Sequence record: OQ870567.1
Length of the DNA stretch: 40,594 nt
Direction: 5' to 3' (one strand)
Origin: Escherichia phage SR04
In this document: positions 1-40,594 of the stretch, piece by piece
Position numbering within the stretch: position 1 is the first letter of the stretch
Layout: the number at the start of each line of letters is the position of its first letter
The notes under the pieces: generated by a model
Told to the model about the DNA's origin: nothing
Database searches by the model: none
Seen by the model: the letters and a program-made list of their open reading frames with translations, nothing else
Program-made: the position numbers and the translations under genes

Positions 1-2762
1 ACTACCGGCTCTGTTTTCTTCTCCCCATTAGAAGTAACAATAGGGTTGCTTCCGAGATATGCAGTTGTGAAACGGTTACTTGGTCCACCAAGCGCAATGA
101 CGTTATCGTGATAAGGCTTAACGTCAGCAGTCTGGAACAGATGCTCATCACCATTGTAAACTATTCGCTTTGAGTCGGTGTTATTTGCACCATAAAGCGT
201 AATCTGTGCGCCAGTCGTTGAACTGGTTCCTTCACCTCCGCAAAATATGGTGCGCTGCCCTGCCGGGTTATCAGTCGGTATAGACTTCCCGATAAACCCA
301 TATTCACCTTCCATTAAAACTTCAGAGCGAATGTTACTACTGGTGCTGGCTCTAATGGTCACATGACCTAAACCCAAATCCCCTGTAAATTCCATTGGCG
401 CAGGAACAGTGCGAATCCCATTCGTATCAAAAAACACGGGAACAGCTCTGTTAGGTACAGCACCATACCTGAAATCACGGGAGACATGATTACTTGGGCC
501 AATCTTCATTTTGTAGCAATACAAATCTGAGGGATGACCATCCGCTTTGAATGGGTCCTTCGCTGAGTTATCTCCATAGGTCCATGGGTTAAAATGGTCC
601 TCTCCACCAAACATGTAGTAGATGTAATTATCCTTCACAACTACCGAACCAACACCTACACCTGAGTTAACTATTCCGCCCTGATAAATCTGGTCAGTGA
701 TGTTAACCCATTCAATATCATCTGCATTCCAATTGTTTACATTCAAGCGCGCATAGAAGGTGCGAGGATAAGATGCCTTGTAACGATCATCTGGTGCACC
801 TGCTTCCCATTCATTTTCTGCACGTTCTGAACCAAACATAATAAGGTCATCCCCTACTTTAGCAAAAGGTAATGTAGTATGATGAACATTATGTGGAAAT
901 CTCAGTGACTCCCAAGTCTGACCTATGTCTCTACTACGATGCAAAGAGCTACCTAGTCTATCCCCACGAGTGCCACGAGTGATAAGGTATAATACACCGT
1001 CATAGTACTTGATGCACGGCTCTGCCGCATCTGGTTCATACTCAGATGGTATCTGACGACGAACATAACTAGATGGGCTATTGAAAGCGTCAGGGAAATA
1101 GAAAAGTCCAACTTCGCGTGGAGCTACATCGCCTTGATGATAACCCATAACAAAGCCATTGTTATCAATAGTAGCAAAGCTATGCACCTCTGTGACACGA
1201 GGGATTAGACCAAGGTCTGTCTTACGCCATGGAGACTTATGGAAAGAAGTACCCATGTGCCAATTCTTTCCAGCGTTATTCAAATCTGAAGTCTGCTGGT
1301 TGGGTGTAAGAACCGTGAAGTTGTCCTTATCTATTACGGTTGCAACAGTCATATCACCGGAGACACCTGTTACCGCAGAATTAGAGAAGTTAACAAAATC
1401 ACCCACGAATAGTCCGTGGTCTGGTACATGTATTGTTGCATATTGCTGATTTGCAGCTTTAGTGATACCACCAGTAAGATGCAGGCTACGAGGCATGGGG
1501 CGATCCCACAATGCACAATTGGTTAATGCGTTCTTGGCTAAAGTACGTGTTTCAATCATGGCAAACAGACGGTTGCGACATACACCCATACTCATACAGT
1601 GATAGTTCACTGTAGGGTAATCTGGATGCAGATCAGTTAACCACTCTGGAGTAGACCATGTTTGACCATCATCACCAGACTTAACCCATGATACATGCAG
1701 ACGACTAACACCATGACGATCACTACCCATGTAAGGTGCATATATCACATTATCATATACGAACGCTTTATCCTGAGGCCACGCATTGTAATAAGGGGTG
1801 TCCGTTATTTTGAACAACTCACCCTGAACAAATTCCTCAGAGGCATAATAAAGAGGTTGTCCGGGAATGCGCTCATAAACGAAACGAGTGTTGATGAAGC
1901 GACTAATGTCAGGCAGGGATGTGACCTTATATGTCTTCCCATTGCCATTAATCTTTTGTCCAACCGGTATGTCGTTTAATGCGCTCGTTAACGCTGCTGT
2001 ATCATCAGTGACACCATCACCTTTAGCACCCCAACCACGAACATCTTTTTCATCAAGCCAGCGTGCTCTATGTAATTCAGGGTAGAGTATTGCCCCTTCA
2101 GGATTTGAAATCTGACTTCTTAAAGCAGCATCACCAACACTAACCCACGCACCTAATCCAATCCCACCGGAAGTTTCAGGAGTTGAACCAGCAGGAACGT
2201 TCTTTGGAAGCGTACCATCCCAGCGGTAATAATCACCATCCTCTTCCCATAGCAGGACCTCGCTCCATGTTGTAACGTTGTAGCCTTTCTCGAAGGAGCG
2301 ACGGGTAATATAGCCAATTAGACCAGCTTCCCTGATACTCTCAGCGATTCGTCGTGCTTCGTCCTCGCTATCCTTAGCGTTGCCAGCAGAGCTACTAGCA
2401 GCATCGGCATATTCCTTCGCTAAGTCAACCGTTTGGTCTCGACCTTCTTCTGCAATATGGATAGCCTGAAGCTCTGAATTGGTCAGGTCACTAGCTGTCA
2501 ACACTGAGCCATTCCTGAAGTCTACCACTAAGTCAGTTCCAGTCTGACGGTGAATACGAACGATGTCGAAACCTGATTGGTCAACCAACATCTCAATCAT
2601 CGTTGGATTAAGGAATCGGTAATCTCGACCAACTTCCAGTACACGGTTCAGGGTAGGGTTAGAGCTATTCACCAGCGTAACAACAACAAACGTTCTGGCT
2701 AGGTAGTCGAACTCAATCCTGTACTGAGTGTTTCCTGAAGGGAATTGTGTAATCGTGGACAT
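1..2762 (-). CDS. Tail spike / endosialidase (T7 gene 17 position), 5' part; ATG at 2760-2762, continues across the circular junction into 40085-40517
   Basis: Hand translation gives MSTITQFPSGNTQYRIEFDYLARTFVVVTL..., matching the T7 gp17 N-terminal tail-attachment domain (EYLARKFVVVTL, DYRF, HVAEEARD). Downstream are sialidase Asp-boxes SGDDGQTW and SRDIGQTW. AGGAGG RBS at about 2767-2772. Confidence 0.85.
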   Translation of the reverse strand, partial: MSTITQFPSGNTQYRIEFDYLARTFVVVTLVNSSNPTLNRVLEVGRDYRFLNPTMIEMLVDQSGFDIVRIHRQTGTDLVVDFRNGSVLTASDLTNSELQAIHIAEEGRDQTVDLAKEYADAASSSAGNAKDSEDEARRIAESIREAGLIGYITRRSFEKGYNVTTWSEVLLWEEDGDYYRWDGTLPKNVPAGSTPETSGGIGLGAWVSVGDAALRSQISNPEGAILYPELHRARWLDEKDVRGWGAKGDGVTDDTAALTSALNDIPVGQKINGNGKTYKVTSLPDISRFINTRFVYERIPGQPLYYASEEFVQGELFKITDTPYYNAWPQDKAFVYDNVIYAPYMGSDRHGVSRLHVSWVKSGDDGQTWSTPEWLTDLHPDYPTVNYHCMSMGVCRNRLFAMIETRTLAKNALTNCALWDRPMPRSLHLTGGITKAANQQYATIHVPDHGLFVGDFVNFSNSAVTGVSGDMTVATVIDKDNFTVLTPNQQTSDLNNAGKNWHMGTSFHKSPWRKTDLGLIPRVTEVHSFATIDNNGFVMGYHQGDVAPREVGLFYFPDAFNSPSSYVRRQIPSEYEPDAAEPCIKYYDGVLYLITRGTRGDRLGSSLHRSRDIGQTWESLRFPHNVHHTTLPFAKVGDDLIMFGSERAENEWEAGAPDDRYKASYPRTFYARLNVNNWNADDIEWVNITDQIYQGGIVNSGVGVGSVVVKDNYIYYMFGGEDHFNPWTYGDNSAKDPFKADGHPSDLYCYKMKIGPSNHVSRDFRYGAVPNRAVPVFFDTNGIRTVPAPMEFTGDLGLGHVTIRASTSSNIRSEVLMEGEYGFIGKSIPTDNPAGQRTIFCGGEGTSSTTGAQITLYGANNTDSKRIVYNGDEHLFQTADVKPYHDNVIALGGPSNRFTTAYLGSNPIVTSNGEKKTEPV

Positions 2763-2808
2763 TATGCCTCCTTTGTTATTTAAACGGAGACCTATGGTAG
2801 CGCCTCCA

Positions 2809-2831
2809 GTTTCCTATAGTGATAGTTTAGT
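2809..2831 (-). promoter_or_regulatory. Phage RNAP promoter (phi17-like), overlaps the gp16 stop codon
   Basis: Minus strand reads ACTAAACTATCACTATAGGAAAC; the CACTATAGG core is shared with ten other sites and resembles the T7 class III consensus at -7 to +2. Confidence 0.7.
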
Positions 2832-5800
2832 CCTTGATGTGGATACCTTGCTCCTCAAACATTCCCAGTAACAACTTCTGAGTAATCGGGTCGTTCGGTA
2901 CCAGTTCACGGAAGGTGTTGTACATCCCGGTCATGTAGTCTCGTTCGTTAACACGGGTGTCTGACTTCAGGTATCCCGCCAAGTTGTAAGCCGTAGCACC
3001 AACGTTAGCAGCATAGCCGAAAGCCGGGACCTGCTCAAGGAAGTTGCCGACCACATTCATTACCGGACCACTGGAAGCAGCACCAAAGGCGATTGGCTTC
3101 TCCGTCTTCTCTGTAGGCGAACGAGGTAGGATAGACGAACGGAGCATCTTAGTGTCCTCATATCCAGCGATTCCACCTAGAATGTTAGCTACCCCAAGTG
3201 GGCCACCCAGATGTGAACTACGGGACAGAGCCGCATAACCAATCATCGTCGGGTCCAGAGCTTGCTTAAGGTAGTCACGGTCTCGACCATCCTGCATAGC
3301 ATAAGCCTTGACGTGCACCTGAGCTATGTAGTAGATACCAGCCAGACCCATAGACATCACGGTCGATAATGCAGCGTCAATCGCTCGGTTGTTCTTCGTG
3401 GCGTTATAGAAGGTACGCATGGTTCGCCCATTGATGGACTTGATGACGAAGTTCTTAAACTGAAGGACAGTCTTAGCGATAGGGCCATAAGCCTTGGCGT
3501 CCATGTTGGACAGCTTGTGGGGCCGGAGTAACGTTTCGTCAGCGATGGTGTCACCCATACGCCATAGGTCCATAGCCCTTGGGTCCTGACTGAACGCCTT
3601 CTTATCCTTGATGGTGTACTTCCCGTCTGGACCACGAGTCACTGACTCACGGATTAGGGACTTAATGCCATTCCACTGCTCGTCAGATATACCAGCGGTC
3701 TTCAGCCAGCGGTCATCGAACTTACGCTTACTACCAGTCAGGCTATGCTCCACGATGTCAGATAGGAAGCCTTGACGTCCAGCATCTAACAGGTAGTTGG
3801 TCGTACCGTTGAGGACTTTAGTGAACGGAGAGCGTACTGCAAGTTCGCCAGTGTAATACTTGGCAGTCCCCAGAGCTGTAGCTGTACCACGACCAAGGTC
3901 ACTGTAAGATCGCAGACGGTCAATGACATCCTGTTTAGACGGACGGATTGAGTCATCCAGTTCCTTACCGAAGATAACATTGTGCAGGTCCTTAATCTCT
4001 GAGGCCCCAACCTTCTTGTTACGGAAGGCTAGGTCACGGAAAATCGGGACTCCATGCAGCATTGCACGAACGTTGCCACGAGCCAGCATACCACCAATCT
4101 CCGTTAAGTTCTGAACACCCATGTAGGCATTCTTAGCGAAGAACGATAGGTCTGTCATTGTTCGCATCACGGTAGCGAAGGCTGCATCGTCAGCACCATC
4201 ACGTCGAGCACGACCTGTTAGAATCTTCAAGGTGTCACGTAAGGTAGATACTTCACCTTTCAACTTACCGTCATCCCCAGCCTTGTTCATCATGGTCTCA
4301 ACCAAGTCCTTCATGTCCTTCGTTGTTTTGCCTGTACCAGCCATGATAGCAATATCGCCATTAACTCGACGGTTGTAGGCCGGGACAATCTTGTCCATGT
4401 CCCACTCACGCAGGTTGTTGACACTGAAGGTCTGACCGTTAGGTAGGACGATTGACATATCGCTATCGAACAGGTTACGAGCCTCAAGGAAGCTGTTGTT
4501 CTCCAGACCAACCAGACCGTTGATGTTCTCTTCCATTACGGATGAACGTTCGAACTGCTCGGTGTGGGAGATGCCGTAAGCCTTATCGTTGGCGTACTTA
4601 TCGACCGCAGCAGCAAGCCCCTCTGGAGTCAACGTAGGGTCAGACTCTAAGAGTGCCTCGTCCACGCGTTTCTTGACTTCAGGTCGAGACGCATAGCTGG
4701 TCAACCATGACTTCTTGATGGCCTCCTGCAACGCCTCTGGACTCCCAAGCTCCTTGATGTACAGCTCCTTCATCTGTTTGCTATACACATGAGGGACGTA
4801 GGTTCCCTTGAAGCGGCTACCCGGAAAGATAGACTGAGCGTCTGGACGACCAAACATCGCCGGGTTCTCCATCATCTCACGCTTGGCGTCAAACTGGTTC
4901 TTCAGTAGGTCATAGACTTTAAGTTCTCCCGGAGTCAGTTCAGCCTTCAGGTTCCCACTTCCGTCTTCAATAGCCATAGACACACGCTGGTAGATGTCCT
5001 GACGGAATGCGCCAGAGTCTCGCCAGAATGCTGTCTGGAAGTACGGGTCCTTCAGTGCCTCAGTAACCGCATCGTCGATGTCGTTGTAGAACCGATGGTC
5101 CACAGCACGAAGTCTCTCGAATACGTCAGACGCAGTGGTCCCGATTTTACCTGAGGCCCCAGACTGCATACCAGTTGGTGAACGCACTAAGTCAGAAGCT
5201 ACTCCACGAATCTCAGGGTTCTCAGACCGAAGCAGCTTCAGGCCAATCTCAGTCAGACCACCAAGGTTCACACCCGCAGCGGCCCGTTCAGGCTCAATCA
5301 CTTCGTCAAAGACTTGACGTGTCTTAGGGTTCAGAGGGTTTTCACCAATCAGGATTGAACCATCTTCCAGTCGTACACTACCCGGCTCATTCGGAACGTC
5401 AGCGAACTTAACGCCTTGATGACTAAAGGTCTCCTCACCTTCTTGAATAGGAAGACGAGACAGGTCCTGACCATCAACGTTACGAGCGGTCTCACGAGCT
5501 TCCAGACGTGTGGCTGGACCAGCAAACTCATTAGTGTTGCGACCTAAGGCTCTGCCTAACCCATCAGCGATGGCAGTCATACCACCACCAAAGAGAGCAC
5601 CACCAAGGATAGCTTCAGCCACATGAGCATCACCGCCAGCCACTGAGGTACGGGCCATCTCTGATACACCAGCAAGTGCTCCAGATTGAGCAGCCACGGT
5701 GAACATCTTGTTGACCAGCTTCGCACCTTTGCCAACCTGTCCAGCGATAGGAACGTAGGTCAGCGGGTCTACACCAGCACCAATCACACCAGCTGCTAAC

Positions 5801-6714
5801 TGAGCACCAGTCCCAGCCTTGGCCTTCTCTTGGTCCAACTTCTGGTTCTCAAGCGCTAAGTTAATAAGCTCGGTCAGGTTCTGAGGGGAGCCGCCAGTAA
5901 TGACACCGTAATACTGAGGGAGAACTCCAGCGTTACGAATCTGGTCCAGCTCCTCACGAGACCACTTATGGTTGTTCCAGCGGGTAGGGTTGAACACATC
6001 GCCAATGACATCAAGTGAGTCCTCGGTCTGACCAGCGCGGATAGCCACGCCGACCATAGAGTTCTTCACTTCAGCTTCTGTAGCCGATCCGAAACCGAAC
6101 CACGTAGAGCGATCCTCTCGTTCCTGCATGGTCTCGCCAGTAGACTTATAGAACATCTCACCGAACGATTCGTTGGGAGCTTCAGGTGCTTGACCCTCAA
6201 TGTTTAGACCAGCAGCGGTCGGAAGGTTCTCGCCCAGAGCTACTTTAGGTTTAGCCTTGAGTCCTTCCGTGAGTGCGTCAAATACGTTAGCGCTTACTGG
6301 TGGAGTCTTTGGGCTAATGCCATTGAGTGCCCGTGCGACTCCCTTCTGATAGACTTCAGGATTGTACCGGGAGCCTGTCTCCTGGAAGCTAATAGCTTGC
6401 GCCAGAGCAGACAGGGTGTCCGGGTTCGATAGGTCGAGACTCTGGGTAGCTGGAATACCGGTTGCAGCCACCACTGAGTCAATATAAGCCTTAGTGTCGT
6501 TCTCGTTAGGAGGTGCCCATCGGTTGATAATCTTCTCGATGGAGTCATAACCTCGGCGACCGTAGGACAGCAGGTTTTTACCTAAAGCTCGGACGCCAGA
6601 CTCTGGACTATCGAAGGTGACGAATGCGCCATCATCTCCAGTCATTCCTTCCCATTGGTCCTTACTTACCCGGATGTTACCCGGATTGTTATTGCGAATA
6701 CCACGAGTCGCCAT
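2827..6714 (-). CDS. Internal virion protein D (gp16-like, 1295 aa) with an atypical N-terminal domain
   Basis: The C-terminal two thirds align by eye with T7 gp16 (LRSPTGMQSGASGK, AYGISH, NGDIAIMG, KILTGRARR, PNDPITQKLL). The N-terminus carries an NNPGNIR motif rather than the T7 transglycosylase motif. Confidence 0.85.
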   Translation of the reverse strand: MATRGIRNNNPGNIRVSKDQWEGMTGDDGAFVTFDSPESGVRALGKNLLSYGRRGYDSIEKIINRWAPPNENDTKAYIDSVVAATGIPATQSLDLSNPDTLSALAQAISFQETGSRYNPEVYQKGVARALNGISPKTPPVSANVFDALTEGLKAKPKVALGENLPTAAGLNIEGQAPEAPNESFGEMFYKSTGETMQEREDRSTWFGFGSATEAEVKNSMVGVAIRAGQTEDSLDVIGDVFNPTRWNNHKWSREELDQIRNAGVLPQYYGVITGGSPQNLTELINLALENQKLDQEKAKAGTGAQLAAGVIGAGVDPLTYVPIAGQVGKGAKLVNKMFTVAAQSGALAGVSEMARTSVAGGDAHVAEAILGGALFGGGMTAIADGLGRALGRNTNEFAGPATRLEARETARNVDGQDLSRLPIQEGEETFSHQGVKFADVPNEPGSVRLEDGSILIGENPLNPKTRQVFDEVIEPERAAAGVNLGGLTEIGLKLLRSENPEIRGVASDLVRSPTGMQSGASGKIGTTASDVFERLRAVDHRFYNDIDDAVTEALKDPYFQTAFWRDSGAFRQDIYQRVSMAIEDGSGNLKAELTPGELKVYDLLKNQFDAKREMMENPAMFGRPDAQSIFPGSRFKGTYVPHVYSKQMKELYIKELGSPEALQEAIKKSWLTSYASRPEVKKRVDEALLESDPTLTPEGLAAAVDKYANDKAYGISHTEQFERSSVMEENINGLVGLENNSFLEARNLFDSDMSIVLPNGQTFSVNNLREWDMDKIVPAYNRRVNGDIAIMAGTGKTTKDMKDLVETMMNKAGDDGKLKGEVSTLRDTLKILTGRARRDGADDAAFATVMRTMTDLSFFAKNAYMGVQNLTEIGGMLARGNVRAMLHGVPIFRDLAFRNKKVGASEIKDLHNVIFGKELDDSIRPSKQDVIDRLRSYSDLGRGTATALGTAKYYTGELAVRSPFTKVLNGTTNYLLDAGRQGFLSDIVEHSLTGSKRKFDDRWLKTAGISDEQWNGIKSLIRESVTRGPDGKYTIKDKKAFSQDPRAMDLWRMGDTIADETLLRPHKLSNMDAKAYGPIAKTVLQFKNFVIKSINGRTMRTFYNATKNNRAIDAALSTVMSMGLAGIYYIAQVHVKAYAMQDGRDRDYLKQALDPTMIGYAALSRSSHLGGPLGVANILGGIAGYEDTKMLRSSILPRSPTEKTEKPIAFGAASSGPVMNVVGNFLEQVPAFGYAANVGATAYNLAGYLKSDTRVNERDYMTGMYNTFRELVPNDPITQKLLLGMFEEQGIHIKD

Positions 6715-10085: not shown

Positions 10086-10108
10086 AGTCCCTATAGTGAT
10101 AGTTAAGG
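10086..10108 (-). promoter_or_regulatory. Phage RNAP promoter (phi13-like)
   Basis: Minus strand TTAACTATCACTATAGGGACT about 35 nt upstream of the gene 13 ATG. Confidence 0.7.
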
Positions 10109-14628: not shown

Positions 14629-14651
14629 TCTCCCTATAGTGATAGTTTAGT
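14629..14651 (-). promoter_or_regulatory. Phage RNAP promoter phi10-like (strong late promoter)
   Basis: Minus strand CTAAACTATCACTATAGGGAGACC; the TATAGGGAGACC start region is as at T7 phi10. Confidence 0.8.
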
Positions 14652-14652
14652 C

Positions 14653-15537
14653 CTACAGGCTTGAGGCAGCTACCTTAGCGCGAACTTCCATCGTGTACTT
14701 AGCGTCACGCAGGTATCGCGGGTCACTCATAGCCTTAATCATGTCAGCCTTGGAGCTGAATGCTTCGGTCTGAGGAGCCTTAGGTGCGACCACAGGTTTA
14801 GCCTGAGTGGTGATGGTACGCTGAGGTTTAACACCAACAGCTTTACCCAGAGTCTTGCCAGCCAGATTCAGCAGAGCTTTGGTAGTCGCAATGTCCTTAC
14901 GAACGATGGCAGCTTCCAGTGCTTCACGAGTTGACGGGTCGTTGGACTCAAGGTGAGACAGGATGCGATTAAACTGTTCAGCACCACCAGCGTAGCGAAC
15001 CACACCAGCAGCATACTGTTCAGCCAGAGCTTCCTGACCACGTACAAACGAATCTACGAAACGCTTGGTGTAACCTGCTTCCTGCAGCTTAGCGTAGGAT
15101 GCGTCAGACAGCTTACCGTCCTTGGCGTATTCAGCCTTGATAGCGATAATTTCATCAGCAGTGACCTTTCCAGCTTCCACAGCAGAAGACACCATGTCGT
15201 CAAATGCAGCTTCGTTTTCATCCAGAGCGGTGACACTTTCAGTCAGCTCTTTCGGTGCATCACCTAGTTCGATGAACTCAGGCTGCTCACCATCGGTCTC
15301 AGACTCTTCGTCATCGGACTCGTGGTCTTCTTCACCTTCAGTCTCTTCGACGTTCTCGTCTTCTTCGGTCGCCTCTTCATTTTCAGCTTCCAGTTGCTTG
15401 AAGGTAATAGCGTCATCGCCATCACGAACAGCTACGTCCTGTTCAAGCATAGACTTCTGGTGTTCGTTCAGGTCCTCAACGGAACCAGTGATTGCATTAG
15501 AGCTAACGCCGAACTCGGCATAAACTGATTGAGACAT
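14653..15537 (-). CDS. Scaffolding protein (gp9-like, 294 aa)
   Basis: Highly acidic, between portal and capsid; C-terminus resembles T7 gp9. Confidence 0.8.
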   Translation of the reverse strand: MSQSVYAEFGVSSNAITGSVEDLNEHQKSMLEQDVAVRDGDDAITFKQLEAENEEATEEDENVEETEGEEDHESDDEESETDGEQPEFIELGDAPKELTESVTALDENEAAFDDMVSSAVEAGKVTADEIIAIKAEYAKDGKLSDASYAKLQEAGYTKRFVDSFVRGQEALAEQYAAGVVRYAGGAEQFNRILSHLESNDPSTREALEAAIVRKDIATTKALLNLAGKTLGKAVGVKPQRTITTQAKPVVAPKAPQTEAFSSKADMIKAMSDPRYLRDAKYTMEVRAKVAASSL

Positions 15538-15615: not shown

Positions 15616-15638
15616 AGTTCCTATAGTGATAGTTTAGG
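15616..15638 (-). promoter_or_regulatory. Phage RNAP promoter (phi9-like), overlaps the portal stop codon
   Basis: Minus strand CCTAAACTATCACTATAGGAAC. Confidence 0.7.
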
Positions 15639-18436: not shown

Positions 18437-18459
18437 AGTCCCTATAGTGATAGTTTAGT
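18437..18459 (-). promoter_or_regulatory. Phage RNAP promoter (phi6.5-like)
   Basis: Minus strand CTAAACTATCACTATAGGGACT. Confidence 0.7.
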
Positions 18460-18604: not shown

Positions 18605-19455
18605 AGGATGACCTCCTTGGACTTAGGGTCATAGTCAGAGGCTCGACAAATACGAGCGACCTGAGCTTGTACCAGAAGTTCCTCCTCGGTCATGCCAGCC
18701 TTAGCAGCCAGTGTAACCATGCAGTCCCACAGCGTCATGTCTTCACGCTTCGGATACTTCTTCCACTCAGTCTTAATCTGGCCTTTGTTCTTGCCAGTCT
18801 TAAGCTCGCGGCTCTCCTGCACGAAGTAATACGGTTCGTCAAGGAATGCACGAGTGGTGTCCTCACCCATCCCAGGAATACCGCCGTAGCCATCTGTAGT
18901 GTCACCCTTGATGGTCTGCTCCATGTGCCAGTAGTCTGCCTCGGAAGTCGTATGACTCAGGATTTCACCAGTGGTTAACCAGAAGAACTCACAGTTCGGG
19001 ATGGTCTTGAAGTCCTTATCGCAGGACACCAGCACCGCATGGTCGCATCCGACAATCTGAGGTCTGGTCCCGATGATACCCATACAATCGTCACCCTCAA
19101 GCGTTGGACGCAGGAAGCTGTTGAACCGTGGGTCAGCCATCACTTCGGCTACGAACTTCTTGTAACCTACAGGCTTGCGAGAACCCTTACGGTTAGCCTT
19201 ATAGGTAGGCAAAACGTCCTTACGCCAGTTGTTATCATCAGTAAAGCACATCACAATCTTAGCGTCTTTCCACGCCTTGCGCTTCTTAACGATTTCAGCG
19301 ATGGTGTTCTCAAGGATACGGCGAGCCTTCTCGTGGTCGCAGATAAGGGTCCAGATGTCATCACCCCAGTCTGTCTCTTCCTCGGCAGCAGCCATAGAAG
19401 AGAATACTAGGTAATCGCCATCAAGAACAAGAGCTATCTTCTTCTCAGCACCCAT
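18586..19455 (-). CDS. 5'-3' exonuclease (gp6-like); probable start at internal Met (MGAEKK, 289 aa)
   Basis: PVGY, EGDD.MG, CDKDFKTIPNC, TIKGD.TDGY and LWDC are shared with T7 gp6. AGGAGG lies 8 nt before the 19455 ATG; the track start at 19488 has no RBS. Confidence 0.85.
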   Translation of the reverse strand: MGAEKKIALVLDGDYLVFSSMAAAEEETDWGDDIWTLICDHEKARRILENTIAEIVKKRKAWKDAKIVMCFTDDNNWRKDVLPTYKANRKGSRKPVGYKKFVAEVMADPRFNSFLRPTLEGDDCMGIIGTRPQIVGCDHAVLVSCDKDFKTIPNCEFFWLTTGEILSHTTSEADYWHMEQTIKGDTTDGYGGIPGMGEDTTRAFLDEPYYFVQESRELKTGKNKGQIKTEWKKYPKREDMTLWDCMVTLAAKAGMTEEELLVQAQVARICRASDYDPKSKEVILWTPSM

Positions 19456-19894
19456 CGTCCAGACCTCCTGTAGCCATAGCGACTGCATATGGCATCAAGG
19501 GAACTTTAGGCTCCTCAATACGTTCCAGAGTCACCTCAGGCTTCAGCCATTTGTTGGCGAACTCATGTGCCATGTCGTTGTCCTCTGAGTTGAGGTGGGA
19601 CATCAGGTTCCAGAAGTTTGAAGACATCTCAGTCTCCTTCTCAACCCGGCGATATACTCCCCAGTCATTTACCTCTGAACCGTAGCTGTCATTCCACATA
19701 CCACTGGCTACGATGGTCAGCCCGATGAACTGACGCCACTCATAGGCCTCAGCGGGAGACTCGGTATATGAATCAACGTCCTTCTCTGTCAAGGTGTATG
19801 ACCAAGATGCGTAGAACTCAGCGTACTTGCGGTGCTCCTTCTCACACTCACCTATGTCAAGGACCAGCTCTTTCAGACTTTCAGGTATCTTCAT
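19445..19894 (-). CDS. Hypothetical acidic protein (149 aa) at the gp5.9 position
   Basis: Long ORF between gp5.7 and exonuclease; no recognisable motif. Confidence 0.5.
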   Translation of the reverse strand: MKIPESLKELVLDIGECEKEHRKYAEFYASWSYTLTEKDVDSYTESPAEAYEWRQFIGLTIVASGMWNDSYGSEVNDWGVYRRVEKETEMSSNFWNLMSHLNSEDNDMAHEFANKWLKPEVTLERIEEPKVPLMPYAVAMATGGLDDGC

Positions 19895-20381: not shown

Positions 20382-20539
20382 TAGTCTTCTCCTTCTTCGT
20401 TATGTTCTTTCAGAATTTCACGAATGTCTCGACTGCACTGTCCACTGAGGTTTGGACTATAACGAGACTCCTCGTGTCCACACCACCAAGCTGACCGCAT
20501 CAGGTCTTTGACCTCCTGCTCACTATAAGTTTTAGCCAT
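20381..20539 (-). CDS. Small ORF (52 aa, MAKTYSEQEVKDLMRSAWWCGHEESRYSPNLSGQCSRDIREILKEHNEEGED), gp5.3 position
   Basis: Hand translation; TAATG overlaps with the DNA polymerase stop and the next gene start. Confidence 0.45.
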   Translation of the reverse strand: MAKTYSEQEVKDLMRSAWWCGHEESRYSPNLSGQCSRDIREILKEHNEEGED

Positions 20540-22710
20540 TAGTGACACTCCTTCCACGTTGGTCCAATCTTACCTTCGGTATCAAGGACACATTTAAAGT
20601 TATAGAACTCACCCACCTTACGCATAGCAAGTTGAGCAATCTTGACTACTTCTTCGGCAATCTCCTGAGTACGGCACGCAATCTGCAATTCGTCGTGAAC
20701 CCATGCCATGTACGCAAAGTCTCCTTCCCAGCCGTGAACATACCCTGCCTCTTCAAGCATACGTTCAGTCTCGACAATCCAGTGCTTACAGACAACCGCA
20801 CCATCGCCTTGAAGTAATGCGTTTAGTGCTGAGTGTGGAGACCGGATGTGGATACGGCGACCGTCAAGTCCACGCAGCCAACGGCGTTTCCACTTCACGA
20901 TGTTCTCTCCATCCACCCACTTAGAGTCTGAGATTAACGTACTACTCACAGCTTCCCTGAGGTCTTTGATGGCTGGTGTACCCTCAATGAATTTCTTCAT
21001 GAGAGCTGAACCTTCCTTCTTCCCACCGCCTACTATAAGTCCAATCTTAGCGGCCCCTGCACCATACAGGAACGCATAGATGAACCTCTTAGCGTTGTTA
21101 CGGAAAGCATCATGGTCATGGTTCGACTTATCGCGTGGGACGTTAGGTGCTAACCCAGCGTTTACTGCGTTGGCCCAGTGTATGTCCCCTTCGACCACAG
21201 TCTTCGCATAGTCTCCACCATCAAACGGAGCCGCTCGGTTCCCCAGACAACGAAGCTCAAGACCTGAAGCATCCACACCTACTTGAATCCAAGGGTCTGG
21301 CTTACCATCCGTCTTGTTCCAAGCTGCACCGAAAGCACCACGGCAAGTCTCACCGTATGGAGCACCATTAGCCGGGACTTGAGCCATGTTTGGTGAACTG
21401 TGAGTCGCACGTCCGGTTACTGCCCCGCATGGGTTTATTGAACCGTGCATACGTCCGTCTGGACCTACAAGTTTCAACCATGCGTTCTTACCTTCAGCCA
21501 CCTGACCGATGCGCTTCTGGACTACCAGATACTCACGGACCAGCTCTACGCAAGCCTGAGCCTCTGCGTCTGGTAACTTAACGTGTTCCAACGTCTCGTC
21601 ATCGACTACAGGTTTCCCAGTGTCAGTGAAGTCCACAGGCTCCCAACCACGCTCCATCAAGACTTTCGCTAAGTGGTCTCCGCTTCCCGGATTAAACTCA
21701 ACGTAAGTGATTGGCGTGAACGGTGCTCCTTCCATCGTGTCTCGTGAGTCGAACTCGCAAGGCTCCATACCTAAGCGTTGAGCTTTGTTCTTCGGCTTCT
21801 TGAATACTGACCCGACCTTAGGATACACGACTCGCGGATACTTCGGAAGGTCCTTGCCTGTCCGTGGGTGCTTGAAGAACTCCTTGCCTCCCTTTGGTGC
21901 GTACCAGCTGCCGAAAGTCGAACGCAGCTTGTCCAGCAGCTCCGCACGTTTGACGGTGAGTTCACGATATAAGCCTTCGACCATCTCGGTGTTCATCGGA
22001 TAGCCGTTACGCTCCATCTTCGCACAGGTCCACGCAGCATCGTGTTCCAGACGCAACGCATAAATCTGTTCGAAAGCGAACTGTTCAGACTGGAAGTAAT
22101 ACTTGTCAGTCAGGAACTTCTTGAACAACGCCAGTGTGACCACAACGTCTTGAACGTTATAGTCTAGCATCTCCTGAGATGGGAACAACCATTCGTCCCC
22201 AGCCTTATATTCGATACCTTCAGCCTTGCACTTGGCAACGTAATCGTGTTTGTACTCACCTTTCATCTCACCGAGACGATAGCCCCAAGCCTCAAGAGAC
22301 TGGCGTCCCATCATCTTAGGTGGCAGACGACCAGCTTTCACTGCGCCCATGTCTGAGAACTTAATGTTTGGATACATCAAGCGTCCCAGTACCAAGGTAT
22401 CAATCATCTTATGTTTCGGGAAGTTAAAGCGTTTCCCAAAGTACAAACGCTTCAGCTTGTCTATAGCCGGGACGTCATAGTTGATACCGTTGTGGAATAC
22501 CAGCATACCATCAGGTGATGCGGCAATCTCTTCCACTTTATGAACATACTCTTTGAAGCCACCGACGATACCGACCATCGGAGCTACCCCGTACTTAAGG
22601 GTCTCATTCGACTCGGCGTTAATCAGGACCCCACAGTGGAACTGGGAGACTGTATCAAGGAGACCGTTGGTCTCGATGTCAGAACCCCAGATACTCTTAA
22701 GGTCAAACAT
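20539..22710 (-). CDS. DNA polymerase (gp5-like); start at the third Met of the track ORF (MFDLKS, 723 aa)
   Basis: DIETNGLL, KFHCGV, VFHNG..YDVPA, YNVQDVVVT, GAVTGRATH, DASGLELR, AYMAWVHDE match T7 gp5. GGAGG lies 7 nt before the 22710 ATG. Confidence 0.9.
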   Translation of the reverse strand: MFDLKSIWGSDIETNGLLDTVSQFHCGVLINAESNETLKYGVAPMVGIVGGFKEYVHKVEEIAASPDGMLVFHNGINYDVPAIDKLKRLYFGKRFNFPKHKMIDTLVLGRLMYPNIKFSDMGAVKAGRLPPKMMGRQSLEAWGYRLGEMKGEYKHDYVAKCKAEGIEYKAGDEWLFPSQEMLDYNVQDVVVTLALFKKFLTDKYYFQSEQFAFEQIYALRLEHDAAWTCAKMERNGYPMNTEMVEGLYRELTVKRAELLDKLRSTFGSWYAPKGGKEFFKHPRTGKDLPKYPRVVYPKVGSVFKKPKNKAQRLGMEPCEFDSRDTMEGAPFTPITYVEFNPGSGDHLAKVLMERGWEPVDFTDTGKPVVDDETLEHVKLPDAEAQACVELVREYLVVQKRIGQVAEGKNAWLKLVGPDGRMHGSINPCGAVTGRATHSSPNMAQVPANGAPYGETCRGAFGAAWNKTDGKPDPWIQVGVDASGLELRCLGNRAAPFDGGDYAKTVVEGDIHWANAVNAGLAPNVPRDKSNHDHDAFRNNAKRFIYAFLYGAGAAKIGLIVGGGKKEGSALMKKFIEGTPAIKDLREAVSSTLISDSKWVDGENIVKWKRRWLRGLDGRRIHIRSPHSALNALLQGDGAVVCKHWIVETERMLEEAGYVHGWEGDFAYMAWVHDELQIACRTQEIAEEVVKIAQLAMRKVGEFYNFKCVLDTEGKIGPTWKECH

Positions 22711-22730
22711 GGTTAATCCTCCGTTTAGTC

Positions 22731-22770
22731 TAATCATAAAGGCCACTCGATGTGAATGACCTTGAGTCTA
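22731..22770 (-). promoter_or_regulatory. RNase III-type processing hairpin upstream of gene 5
   Basis: Minus strand AAGGUCAUUC-ACAUC-GAGUGGCCUU, a 10-bp stem with G-U pairs; same motif as at 30281 and 39451 and like the T7 R1.1 upper stem. Confidence 0.45.
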
Positions 22771-27067: not shown

Positions 27068-27090
27068 CTGTCCTACAGTGATAGTTTAGG
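27068..27090 (-). promoter_or_regulatory. Phage RNAP promoter (phi2.5-like; CACTGTAGG variant)
   Basis: Minus strand CCTAAACTATCACTGTAGGACAG upstream of the SSB gene. Confidence 0.6.
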
Positions 27091-28270: not shown

Positions 28271-28293
28271 TTGTCCTATAGTGATAGCTTAGG
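28271..28293 (-). promoter_or_regulatory. Phage RNAP promoter (phi1.5/1.6-like)
   Basis: Minus strand CCCTAAGCTATCACTATAGGACA. Confidence 0.65.
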
Positions 28294-28352: not shown

Positions 28353-28814
28353 TTATAATGAATCTCTTAAGGCTACTGCCTCGGCTATGGTATCGAACGT
28401 ACCGTATGACTTACGCTTTATCCGCAGTTGCCAGCGACCAGTTGATTTCTGGTATTGAACGTATTTCTCTCCAGATTGGCAGTGACTACGGGTTGGAACG
28501 TTAGTTAGGTTCACCGCCTGAGTCACACACCTGAGGTTCTCAATCCTGTTATCCGAAGGGTCCCGGTTGATATGGTCAATCACCATCCCTTCTGGTATAG
28601 GACCGTTGGTTAGTTCCCAGACTACTCGGTGGGCCAGCAGTTGGCCCTTTGTCGTACTTAGAATCCAGTACCCATCCTTTCGTCTATAACCAAGATGTCT
28701 ACCGTTTAGGTTGGAGACTCCAGAGGGAGCCGCCCTGTCTGCTTTAAATCTTGACCGTAGGGTCGTCCTCAGTTCCACGCCACTGGTCGAACGAGGGATG
28801 CCGTAGTAAGCCAC
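28353..28814 (-). CDS. HNH homing endonuclease 1 (153 aa), inserted between the ligase gene and TE
   Basis: HNH-type motif [34 protein letters not shown]...N; GTG start with GGAGGAG RBS inside the ligase 3' end. Confidence 0.8.
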   Translation of the reverse strand: MAYYGIPRSTSGVELRTTLRSRFKADRAAPSGVSNLNGRHLGYRRKDGYWILSTTKGQLLAHRVVWELTNGPIPEGMVIDHINRDPSDNRIENLRCVTQAVNLTNVPTRSHCQSGEKYVQYQKSTGRWQLRIKRKSYGTFDTIAEAVALRDSL

Positions 28815-30280: not shown

Positions 30281-30320
30281 CATGAAGGCCACGACTTTGA
30301 GTCATGACCTTGAGTCTAAT
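30281..30320 (-). promoter_or_regulatory. RNase III-type processing hairpin (R1.1-like)
   Basis: Minus strand AAGGUCAUGAC-UCAAA-GUCGUGGCCUU, an 11-bp stem; same position and stem sequence as T7 R1.1. Confidence 0.5.
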
Positions 30321-30339
30321 CCTATAGTGATAGTTTAGG
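30317..30339 (-). promoter_or_regulatory. Phage RNAP promoter (phi1.1-like)
   Basis: Minus strand CCCTAAACTATCACTATAGGATTAG. Confidence 0.7.
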
Positions 30340-33384: not shown

Positions 33385-33407
33385 GAGTCCTATAGTGATA
33401 GTTAAGT
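33385..33407 (-). promoter_or_regulatory. Phage RNAP promoter about 75 nt upstream of the RNAP gene
   Basis: Minus strand ACTTAACTATCACTATAGGACTC; full match to the promoter core. Confidence 0.6.
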
Positions 33408-35042: not shown

Positions 35043-35399
35043 CTACTTTCTGTCATCTGCCTGTTGTTCGTATGACTGATCAGGCTGTCTACTTAACCGG
35101 GATGATCCGGCGTCTTCACTATCCGGTTGTTGCCGTGTCGTGTTGACGGAAGCTATTAAGCCATAGCCTAGACCTATAGTCAATAGGTAATTTGAAATAA
35201 TATTGATTAAGCTATCGTCGGCCTCATGGTTTAAGAGGATATAGTCTTTGACTAACATGTCTTTGACCTTAAGTCTATAGCTTTGTGTCTATTAACTGTT
35301 GGTATCTGACTGTAGGTGTTGGTGTCTTATGGTTGAGACTGTAGGTTAGTGAGACTGTAGGTTAGTTAGACTGTAGGTGTAGGACGTAATGTTATACTA

Positions 35400-35619
35400 T
35401 AACACTATACAGATAGAGACTCAGAGACAGACCTATAGCCCCTACCTATCGTCCTTCCCTAAGCCATAGCCTAGACCTATCGTTGACCTGAAGTCCTGAC
35501 CATCGGTCCAACCTTATGACAGACTGGCTGTGACTGCAAGGAGCAGTAACTGGGGTAGGGCCTTTTGTCTGGACTGAAAGAGGGCCTATGGGGAGACTTG
35601 AGGTTCTTGAACTGTGAGA
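35400..35619. repeat. Predicted genome terminus and direct terminal repeat (collapsed to one copy in this circular assembly)
   Basis: Minus strand from about 35619 reads TCTCACAGTTCAAGAACCTCAAGTCTCCCCATAGG, like the T7 left end TCTCACAGTGTACGGACCTAAAGTTCCCCCATAGG. It is flanked by CCTACAG repeat clusters (35308-35382 and 35655-35703), analogous to the T7 CCTAAAG arrays. Confidence 0.4.
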
Positions 35620-36160: not shown

Positions 36161-36183
36161 CATCCCTATAGTGATAGTTAAGT
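36161..36183 (-). promoter_or_regulatory. Phage RNAP promoter (phiOR-like) between the terminase/HNH genes and gene 19.5
   Basis: Minus strand TTAACTATCACTATAGGGATGGG. Confidence 0.7.
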
Positions 36184-36196
36184 TAACCTATTGAAT

Positions 36197-36739
36197 TTAC
36201 TTGTGGTTTCTCTTGGCCCTATCACGCTTAGGGGACCGTAGGGAAACAGCGTACTCCTTGTGCTTCTCTTCACGTAGTGCTGTCAGCCATGCTTCAAGTT
36301 CTATCACAGAGTCGGAAGTCTTTGTGTAGCACTTACCCTTAAGTCGCAACTGAGCGCGATACTTTCCGGTAGGCTTGAAGAAGCTGATACCCTTAGGGAG
36401 ACCATTAGTCTCGCCACCTCCTGAGTTCCATCTGTTCTCCAATGCTGTTACTAACCTGTAGTTATCCGGCCTGTCATCAAGCCTATCACCATTGATATGG
36501 TCAACCATCATGCCAGAAGGTATTCGACCAACGGCTAGGCTGTAGATGATTCTGGCACGTCTATAGCGACTACCAAGGACCTTCACGATTGCGTACCCAG
36601 ACGGATGGACTGAATGTCCCATGACCTCGCCTGGCTTCTTGTTAGAGCCTTTATAGGGCTTCTTGCACACCAACTCACCATCTACATAAGCATAGTGATT
36701 AAAGAGGGCCACCCTGTCGATGGCCTTCTGTTTACTCAT
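36197..36739 (-). CDS. HNH homing endonuclease 2 (180 aa)
   Basis: HNH motif MVDHINGDRLDDRPDNYRLVTALEN; GGAGG RBS 6 nt before the ATG. Confidence 0.8.
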   Translation of the reverse strand: MSKQKAIDRVALFNHYAYVDGELVCKKPYKGSNKKPGEVMGHSVHPSGYAIVKVLGSRYRRARIIYSLAVGRIPSGMMVDHINGDRLDDRPDNYRLVTALENRWNSGGGETNGLPKGISFFKPTGKYRAQLRLKGKCYTKTSDSVIELEAWLTALREEKHKEYAVSLRSPKRDRAKRNHK

Positions 36740-36752
36740 ATTTCTCCTCCTA

Positions 36753-38519
36753 TTAGTGGAACGTAACGTATGACCCTAGTCCCAGCTCGTCGTCCGTATC
36801 GTGAGTTACCCGGACCCCATTGTCCCAGAACTCAGTGTGGATGGACTCGAAGCCTTTCCGTGGGTTCTCCATCTGTTCCTCCAGCCACTCCTCAGTGACT
36901 TCACGTTCGCCTTTGTTGGCATCCTTAGCCATCGACTCAACGAAGAACTGTACACCGATAGCCAGCGCATCAAGTCGGTCATCGTGTGCCAAGGCTCCAC
37001 GCTCACGAGAGATACGGGTCATCTGGTAGAAGAGAGAGTAGATAGGGTTACGAACACCATCCTTATCAGAGGCTGACTGGTAGTCTTGGACGATAGCAGC
37101 AGCGTTAACGATAAGTCTGTGAGACCCCATGATAGGCTCCAGAACGTCACAGATGCGGAGTTCTTTCTGACCCTTACTCTTCACTTCAGTTACAGCAGCA
37201 GGATGGATACGGGCAGCTACAGGCTTGAATAGCTCAAGGTACATACCATCGCCGAAGTTACCCTCAATAACGTATTCGTTGACCTTCCACTTACGACCAA
37301 TCTTAGCCAAGGCTTCCAGCGTAGAGTCTTCATAGCCACCGCGCATACCACCAACTTCCATAGCGAAGATGTAGCCGTTGAGCTGGTACAGTACCGCATA
37401 ACCAGTTTCATCCTTACCACGACCACTAGGGTCAATGACCAGAATCTTCTGGGTGTACGAACTGAAGGCAGAACCTACAGTCTGATACGTGTGGTACGAG
37501 TCACCCATGAGTCCAACGTTAGGAACGTCCTCACGCTTGTTCTGAGGGTTCGGCAACCATTGGTAGACCATTGGGCTAGACTCTGGGTCCAAGTCTGCTA
37601 CGATAAGGTCACGGAGCTTCAGAGGGTACTTCTCTGCATCACTCAGGTTCGGGTTAAGCATGAACTGTAGAGCGAAGCCAGCTTTACCATAGGACAGTTC
37701 ACGTTCCTTCAGGTCCGTATCATCGAATCGTACTTCATCGGTAGGACGCCAGTAGAAGGACTCAGGGTCCTCTTCAAGCTCTGCCTGAAGCATAGGAGCC
37801 AGACGGTCGCCGTAAGACTGCCAGTCCTTCTTATCGCGTGGGTAGCGAGCGGGCCAGATGGTAGTGGTATATCCACGACCTTCCAGCTCACGATACAAGG
37901 TCATCTCGTTCTGAGGAGTACCCAGATAGATGATTGTACCTCCCGGCTTCAGGATAGCGTCGAACTCTTTCACAAGCTCTGACAGACGGTCTCGTGCAGC
38001 CTGAGTCGCTGAGTTGTTCGGAACCTCCACGTCATCGGCAATCAGGATGTCAGCACGACTACCAGTCAACTGACCAGTGATACCAACGGACTTAACTGAA
38101 GGTGAGTGGTCTGGCTTGGCTGGTCCAACGTCGAAGCTGATAACCGCATCTCGCTGCCCCTGCTTAGGTTTGAGTTCCTGAAGCTGAGGCATGAGGTCGA
38201 TGATTCGCTTGATGAAGATGGAGTTCGCATCGGCTCGTTCCTTTGAGGCCGACACAATCATGAACTTCAAGTCTGGGTTGTTCCATAGCTTCCAGACCAC
38301 GAAACCACAGGTCAGAAACGACTTGCCAATACCACGGAACGCCTGAAGTATGAATCGGCGATTATCCCCCGCAGCCAGCTTCTTACACATATCTATCTGG
38401 CAGCGGGTTGGAACCGGAAGGCTAAGAGCTTTCCAGAGAACGAAGATGAAGAACACGAAGTCGTCCCTCATCCTTTGGGTCATTTCTGCCTGTCTTTCAA
38501 CAGGTGTTTTCTTAGACAT
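36753..38519 (-). CDS. Terminase large subunit (gp19-like, 588 aa)
   Basis: Size, position and general similarity to T7 gp19. Confidence 0.9.
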
Positions 38520-38952
38520 AGAGTCCCTCCAGCATTAGGTCCCGGACAGAGATAGCCTCCTCTAAAGTAGGACGTGTTGTTCGCATACGGACTCCCTTAC
38601 GCATGACCTCGATAGCGTAGCCATTCTGATGGAACGATATGTTCTTAACTCCAGTCTTTGAGTCAGAATGTCCTGAGGTGTTGCAGGAGTTCTCGCTTGA
38701 AGTAACTAGCCGGAGGTTGTCCAGCCTGTTGTTAGTCCGGCAGCGGTCAATATGGTCAATCTCCATACCTTCTGGTATAGGACCGTGGGTTAGTTCCCAG
38801 ACGACTCTATGGGCCAGCAGGAGTCCATGACGTCGAGTTCCTACCTGATAATACCCGTGGTTTCCCACACACCCAACATCCTTACCAGAACGCATGGACT
38901 TCAGGCCAGACTTACTGGACTCATTATAGATATACGAATCACTGAGCATCAT
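38512..38952 (-). CDS. HNH homing endonuclease 3 (146 aa), inserted between Rz and the large terminase gene
   Basis: HNH motif [34 protein letters not shown]; about 85% nucleotide identity to HNH1 over the core; ATGA overlap with the Rz stop. Confidence 0.8.
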
Positions 38953-39493: not shown

Positions 39494-39757
39494 TTATTGA
39501 ATACCATACCCTGTGTCATTATCCTCAGTCGCTGAAAGCACCTTATCGTACTCTGCGTTCAGGGCCTCCATATCAGCCAGCGTCTTCTCGTCCACAGACA
39601 CCTTACTTAACACAAAGTTGTGACGAGCAAGCAGCTTCTCAATGGCGTTGTAGAGCTGAGGTGAACGCTTAGTGTCATCCCGCAGGTCTTGCAGCATGAG
39701 TCGAGCACGTTCAGTATCTAGCATTAAGAGGAACTTCTCTAAGTCCATCTGCGTCAT
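39494..39757 (-). CDS. Terminase small subunit (gp18-like, 87 aa)
   Basis: FL.MLDT, RSPQLYNAI.KLL.RH.F align with T7 gp18. Confidence 0.85.
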   Translation of the reverse strand: MTQMDLEKFLLMLDTERARLMLQDLRDDTKRSPQLYNAIEKLLARHNFVLSKVSVDEKTLADMEALNAEYDKVLSATEDNDTGYGIQ

Positions 39758-39951
39758 GTTTTACCACCGCCTCCTTTAATCGTTTTGTAGACTAGCACAC
39801 CAATCTGGACAACGGTGTACGCGATAGCTGCAACGTAGAACCATTCGTTCAGCGTAAGTCCGAAGAAGAACCGACTGGCACCATCAGCCGCAGCGGTCCC
39901 GACGATAGGAGAGGCTTTAAGGACCTCATTCTTGAAGTCTAACTCAATCAT
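39754..39951 (-). CDS. Class II holin (gp17.5-like, 65 aa)
   Basis: KA.PIVGT..AD.SAR.FFGL.LNEWFYVAAIAYTVVQIG is near-identical to T7 gp17.5. Confidence 0.9.
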   Translation of the reverse strand: MIELDFKNEVLKASPIVGTAAADGASRFFFGLTLNEWFYVAAIAYTVVQIGVLVYKTIKGGGGKT

Positions 39952-40084
39952 AAAACCTCCAGTTTAAAGCGGGTCGTCCGTGACCCAAAGTTGTTACCTT
40001 ATGTTGTTTAGCGTGTAGTTAGCCTCTACCTACACAACCTTCTAACATCTACCCCACCAACTTAATGGCAAAGGGTTTTGTTTA

Positions 40085-40517
40085 TTACTTCTGTTCAAGG
40101 GCAGAAAGTCTGGCTTCGATTCTTTCCAGTTTTCTTCTCTGATAAGCGGCTTCAGCAAAGAAAATTCCGTCAGGCCGAACACCCCACTCCTCACCCCCTT
40201 CATGGATAACCACCTCAGTGAATACAGGCTCTTCCGTAGTAGTGACATTACCCTCCTCGTCAGTGTGTTCAATGATTTCATTGTGCGAAAATACCGTATC
40301 GGTCATCCGTGGATACTTGTCATAGCACAGAACGGCATAACGACAATTCGTACTGTTTTCATCCATCAGACCGTGTGCAATGAATACATCACGAATTTGC
40401 TGAGCAATAACCCCGAAGTGAATACGAGCATCAGTGCCTTTCAGTTGAACAGCATCTAACCATTGATACATGATGTAGTGAACGTCACCCCAGGCATCTA
40501 GGAAAGCATCATCAAAA
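40085..40517 (-). CDS. Tail spike / endosialidase, 3' part: C-terminal intramolecular chaperone domain and stop; joins 1-2762 across the junction for 1064 aa in total
   Basis: Frame continuity across the junction: 2762 + 433 nt = 1065 codons. The C-terminus ...RKLERIEARLSALEQK is the tail of a chaperone-type domain recalled from endosialidase tail spikes. Confidence 0.8.
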
Positions 40518-40594
40518 ACTACCGGCTCTGTTTTCTTCTCCCCATTAGAAGTAACAATAGGGTTGCTTCCGAGATATGCAGTTGTGAAACGGTT
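40518..40594. repeat. 77-bp exact duplicate of window positions 1-77 (circular assembly overlap)
   Basis: Direct comparison of both window ends; typical k-mer-length overlap of a circularised contig. Confidence 0.9.

Follow-up and report, generated by a model that had tools for sequence, protein, structure and literature searches.

A tail spike gene divided between the two ends of the window

The stretch of DNA analysed here, called the window throughout, is the 40,594-nucleotide (nt) sequence record OQ870567.1 of Escherichia phage SR04, and our subject is its gene 17, which encodes a tail spike and lies across both window ends. A direct comparison of these ends showed that positions 1-77 are identical to positions 40518-40594 over exactly 77 nt; with one copy removed, the unit length is 40517 nt. 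In this unit, a minus-strand open reading frame (ORF) runs from 2762 to 1 and continues from 40517 to 40085. It is 3195 nt long, is divisible by three, has its sole stop codon at the end and encodes 1064 amino acids (aa), and its ATG start at 2762 is preceded on the 5′ side by AAAGGAGG. The parts of the gene are as follows.

1..2762, minus strand: 5′ part of gene 17 (tail spike, endosialidase precursor), codons 1-920 plus 2 nt, encoding a T7 gp17-type adaptor, a Tail_spike_N module, an endosialidase N-terminal extension, a beta-propeller with an inserted beta-barrel, a stalk and the start of a chaperone domain
40085..40517, minus strand: 3′ part of gene 17, from the remainder of codon 921 to codon 1064 plus the stop codon (40087..40085)
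40518..40594, no strand assigned: second, redundant copy of window positions 1-77, the overlap of the circularised contig
2766..2773, minus strand: Shine-Dalgarno-like sequence AAAGGAGG, read directly, ending 4 nt before the ATG at 2762

The original prediction, made from the letters of the window, had the gene split by the window boundary and wrapping from 2762 through 1 to 40517 and 40085. Both statements hold: the coordinates are exact and rightly allow for the overlap, and once the 77 nt are collapsed the gene is a single continuous frame that aligns without gaps to gp17 of phage K1F and to eight other phage orthologues. In contrast, joining the window end to end with both overlap copies kept adds 77 nt (77 mod 3 = 2) and breaks the frame, and therefore gene 17 is restored only if one copy is dropped before joining. 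Within the duplicated 77 nt, aa 896-921 are encoded once more, and this stretch covers the whole autocleavage centre discussed below (R897, T910, S911, N912 and K916); that this centre falls inside the duplication is a coincidence. At the place equivalent to window 2766..2773, the K1F record M63657 carries an annotated ribosome-binding site. The program-made list of ORFs contains no long ORF in 1-2762 and, at the other end, only a 128-aa fragment with an internal ATG (40085-40471, minus strand); the full gene is absent because the list leaves out ORFs that continue beyond a window end. Short plus-strand ORFs within 1-2762 (up to 96 aa) were considered as genes and rejected, since all long ORFs and all identified genes are on the minus strand and since the gene that contains these short ORFs shows 97% conservation in its own frame.

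The K1F genome is linear and carries a 178-nt direct terminal repeat, both copies of which map to one place in the window.

35416..35619, minus strand: single collapsed region matching the K1F terminal repeat, 82.8% identity

This region is 204 nt long compared to 178 nt in K1F, contains 26 gap positions and is more diverged than the coding regions; it likely marks the true physical genome ends. Since the K1F repeat maps here, far from the window edge, gene 17 is contiguous in virion DNA. In addition, K1F nt 35346-35422 align to both window ends, which indicates that the 77-nt overlap is a duplicated read-through. Taken together, these results indicate that the window is a circularised assembly of a terminally redundant genome, in which the repeat was collapsed to one copy, the 77-nt assembler overlap was retained and the circle was opened arbitrarily inside gene 17, and that the split of the gene is an artefact of linearisation and not a property of the phage.

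We weighed this reading against the alternative that gene 17 is really broken in the phage, either by a physical genome end or as a pseudogene, so that the spike would be truncated at about aa 920 or not made at all. In its favour, gene 17 is cut off at the window edge in the sequence as given, and a 920-aa product that ends at almost the same position is listed in M63657 (1993), the oldest K1F entry. However, that product ends in SNGGGGKQSR followed by a stop codon where gp17 of AM084414 and the window read SNGE[R/K]KTEPV, a departure confined to the last residues, and this ending looks like a sequencing frameshift just after Ser911; all later K1F records give 1064 aa. The sharing of exactly 77 identical bases by the two ends, the gapless alignment of the collapsed sequence with K1F and the eight other full-length orthologues, and the position of the terminal repeat 5 kb away also speak against a true interruption, and a protein without the chaperone domain would not fold (PMC3828593, PMC8326128). 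We regard a real break in the gene as extremely improbable. The endosialidase coding sequence of M63657.1 (110-2872) has its stop codon at window 4..2 (minus strand), a chance coincidence with the window edge.

Architecture and predicted K1 specificity of the tail spike

The joined 1064-aa protein was compared with Pfam, with matches counted at curated cut-offs, and with known structures by a sequence search of all PDB chains. The domains and motifs are listed below.

aa 10-120: Phage_T7_tail (Pfam, 58.3 bits, cut-off 25.2)
aa 156-211: Tail_spike_N (Pfam, above cut-off)
aa 246-312: End_N_terminal (Pfam, above cut-off)
aa 313-754: End_beta_propel (Pfam, 735 bits, cut-off 24)
aa 424-506: End_beta_barrel (Pfam, 162 bits)
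aa 757-910: End_tail_spike (Pfam, 261 bits)
aa 914-971: Peptidase_S74 (Pfam, 36.2 bits, cut-off 22)
aa 362-369, window 1655..1678, minus strand: Asp-box 1, SGDDGQTW (codons from window 1679)
aa 610-617, window 911..934, minus strand: Asp-box 2, SRDIGQTW (codons from window 935)

The four Pfam endosialidase families make up an endosialidase core at aa 246-910. The catalytic part of the K1F endosialidase endoNF (PDB 1V0E, 3GVJ/K/L and 3JU4) matched aa 245-910 with E = 0 and about 97% identity, and thus the proposal that the tail spike is an endosialidase passed the check on which it depended, that of similarity in the central domain, against the crystallised enzyme itself (1V0E/3GVL). By both Pfam and PDB matches, the catalytic domain is a six-bladed beta-propeller with an inserted beta-barrel, as in GH58 endosialidases. 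It is followed by a triple-beta-helix stalk, recognised by the End_tail_spike match and by the conserved residues R837, S848, Q853 and Y821; the first three of these we take to be the secondary polysialic acid-binding site of the stalk. The T7 gp17-like adaptor that had been proposed for the N-terminus was found as the Phage_T7_tail match and was also matched at aa 6-115 by the T7 gp17 N-terminal structures 7BOZ and 8DSP, and homologues of gp11 and gp12 lie upstream in the K1F order. Likewise, the proposed C-terminal chaperone-type domain was recovered as Peptidase_S74, and PDB 3GW6 (endoNF stalk and chaperone) matched aa 790-1064 with 606 bits. The two sialidase Asp-boxes were present as described, and in a six-frame translation of the whole window they were the only matches to S-x-D-x-G-x-[TS]-W.

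In K1F, the catalytic and substrate-binding residues are H350, R549, E581, R596 and R647, supported by Q330, D331, H527, S528, K585 and N699 (PMC13564897), and all eleven are identical in the window tail spike. Autocleavage of the chaperone domain is carried out by an S911-K916 dyad together with T910, N912 and R897 (PMC3828593, PMC8326128), and all five residues are present.

K1F endoNF (gp17; AM084414, CAJ29390; DQ111067) is equally 1064 aa long and aligns without gaps to the window protein, with which it is 97.4% identical. Of the 28 substitutions, 6 lie in aa 1-245, 17 in aa 246-910 and 5 in aa 911-1064, and none affects a residue reported as essential. The two proteins share their domain order, both Asp-boxes, the catalytic residues, the three stalk-site residues R837, S848 and Q853, and the autocleavage residues, and their genes occupy the same slot between gp16 and the holin, behind the same phage promoter and ribosome-binding site. 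We are highly confident that gene 17 encodes the tail spike of a K1F-like podophage of the T7 type (Kayfunavirus), that this spike is an orthologue of endoNF, and that the gene is intact and appears split only because a circular assembly was opened inside it.

Copies of the tail spike at least 95% identical occur in 26 phage records. In the phage collection, the closest match is the spike of vB_EcoP_PR_Kaz2018 (MN510331), which is 99.2% identical with 8 differences, and those of Mt1B1_P3, vB_EcoA_ASO2B and vB_EcoP_FFK3 are 98.9-99.1% identical; these four Kayfunavirus spikes are full-length and differ from that of the window at 8-12 residues. The exact joined protein sequence had no match in an exact look-up against a collection of 15 billion proteins; the window tail spike appears to be a new allele of a known protein and not a new kind of protein, or else it is truncated wherever it has been deposited. 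Among more distant enzymes, endoN92 of phage phi92 (PDB 4HIZ) has the same propeller, stalk and chaperone architecture and matched aa 246-908 (E = 3.6e-240), and the spikes of SP6-like Vectrevirus K1 phages such as ULINTec4 are about 71% identical over aa 234-1060. The N-terminal adaptors of both differ from the T7 gp17-type adaptor shared by the window and K1F; in SP6-like phages, attachment of the spike depends on an adaptor protein.

On the basis of the K1F literature and the near-identity of the two proteins, the N-terminal region of about 120-245 residues would anchor the trimer to the tail by docking via gp11/gp12. The propeller with its barrel and the triple-beta-helix stalk would bind alpha-2,8-linked polysialic acid, the material of the E. 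coli K1 capsule, and endolytic cleavage at the H350/R549/E581/R596/R647 site would open a path through the capsule by which the phage reaches the cell surface. The C-terminal domain (aa 911-1064) would chaperone trimerisation of the stalk and then remove itself, with the Ser911-Lys916 dyad predicted to cleave between T910 and S911 and to release a fragment of about 17 kDa.

Strong homology thus points to a tail spike that would be specific for the K1 polysialic acid capsule and would cleave alpha-2,8-linked polysialic acid endolytically. We infer K1 specificity because the protein is 97-99% identical to a characterised enzyme and because K1 hosts are recorded for its relatives: phages with spikes at least 96.6% identical are recorded on the K1 strains O18ac:K1:H7, K1 LU_100 and UTI89. 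Resistance to K1F is reported to arise via insertions in the polysialic acid gene cluster (PMC9241782). Some observations weigh against this reading. The host labels of two relatives do not fit K1 specificity, namely E. coli K-12 MG1655 for LNA3 and Acinetobacter baumannii for 01KA, and, when compared with nine relatives sampled, the window alone carries two substitutions: S424P, which changes the first beta-barrel residue, and N949T, which lies in the chaperone domain that is predicted to be released.

Substitutions relative to K1F raise the possibility that the fold is that of an endosialidase but that specificity or activity has been altered, for example towards a preference for O-acetylated polysialic acid, a different range of K1 strains, or binding without cleavage. 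Among the 28 differences from K1F are N565S, at a reportedly adaptive position, S580A beside the catalytic E581, I838T beside the stalk-site residue R837, and the private S424P, and deep mutational scanning has shown that positions in the stalk and in barrel loops tune discrimination among K1 hosts (PMC13564897). However, the residues reported as catalytic or intolerant of change are all unchanged, and N565S, S580A and I838T are each also found in other viable phage isolates; S580A, for one, occurs in vB_EcoP_F, whose recorded host is O18ac:K1:H7. With identities of 97-99%, it is very unlikely that the polysaccharide class has changed, and we consider an altered specificity or activity unlikely as a whole. 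There is a small chance that S424P, at the entry of the polysialic acid-binding beta-barrel, together with N565S, S580A and I838T, might make the phage measurably different from K1F in how it discriminates among K1 strains or in how well it tolerates O-acetylated polysialic acid.

Genome context of gene 17 and differences from K1F

The window belongs with the K1F-like Studiervirinae of the genus Kayfunavirus: it is colinear with K1F along almost its whole length, in blocks that mostly have 89-96% identity (a few short ones lie outside these values), and the top whole-genome matches are all Kayfunavirus records. All identified genes are on the minus strand, and the gene order around the tail spike is that of K1F, namely gp16, gp17, holin, gp18, gp18.5 and gp19 (large terminase). 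The features nearest to gene 17 are these.

2827-6714, minus strand: gp16
2809..2826, minus strand: promoter-like element ACTATCACTATAGGAAAC of the phage RNA-polymerase type, upstream of gene 17 and immediately behind the stop codon of gene 16
39754-39951, minus strand: T7-type holin

At the position equivalent to 2809-2826, a promoter is annotated in the K1F record M63657. The T7-class promoter-like motif ACTATCACTATAGG is matched 10 times in the window, with every match on the minus strand, compared to 0.02 expected by chance, and these ten copies presumably form the promoter set of the phage RNA polymerase.

2809-2826, 10086-10103, 14629-14646, 15616-15633 and 18437-18454, minus strand: matches to ACTATCACTATAGG
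27068-27085, 28271-28288, 30317-30334, 33385-33402 and 36161-36178, minus strand: remaining matches to ACTATCACTATAGG

A scan of 39900-40594, downstream of gene 17, found no terminators and no sigma-70 promoters, and neither RNA families (Rfam gathering thresholds) nor tRNAs (ARAGORN) were found in the whole window.

Several differences from K1F lie elsewhere in the genome. Three minus-strand ORFs with a Pfam HNH_3 match, which are probably homing endonucleases, stand at sites with no corresponding K1F sequence: 38512-38952 between gp18.5 and gp19, 36197-36739 downstream of gp19, and 28353-28814 after the ligase gene. The first two of these are also present in Escherichia phage Zappy (OQ870568.1), which is considered below. 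Gene 5 of K1F is interrupted by an insertion of about 600 nt (K1F 14931-15531; joined coding sequence with an embedded gp5.3) that is absent from the window at about 20694-20696, and the DNA polymerase gene of the window (20539-22746, minus strand) is uninterrupted. A 149-aa ORF without a Pfam match (19445-19894, minus strand) takes up a stretch of about 440 nt, between the equivalents of gp5.7 and gp6, that K1F lacks.

The split gene in Zappy and its consequence for annotation

Zappy is the closest whole-genome relative that we found, being 96.5% identical over window 16000-40517. Its record is cut at the point where the window is cut and has a terminal overlap of the same length, 77 nt, and its tail spike gene is split likewise. 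The same cut point in two genomes about 3.5% apart suggests the same assembly pipeline or source laboratory. In the public record of Zappy, the first 2553 nt have no annotated feature, and all that remains of the spike is a "hypothetical protein" of 128 aa (40053-40439). The original prediction had warned that linear gene callers would truncate the spike, and this is borne out by OQ870568.1.

When joined, the Zappy spike is 973 aa long and differs from that of the window by an in-frame deletion of 91 aa at about aa 143-238 (window about 2046-2316; Zappy about 2043-2045). The deletion takes out the Pfam Tail_spike_N (TSP1/gp66-like) module, which is present in the window and in K1F. That Zappy is viable without this module implies that it is dispensable in a K1F-like phage.

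Few phage depolymerases have been characterised as well as spikes of the K1F endosialidase type, for which crystal structures, the mechanism and a full deep mutational scan are available, and the tail spike described here adds nothing biologically new. The consequences of the split of gene 17 are confined to annotation quality: with the assembly opened inside the gene, a linear gene call misses the determinant of host range. Gene 17 is restored once the 77-nt overlap has been collapsed and the genome has been rotated to the terminal repeat (about 35416-35619), and the restored gene allows a prediction of the host, which would be K1-encapsulated E. coli, for example neonatal-meningitis, uropathogenic (UPEC) and avian pathogenic (APEC) strains.

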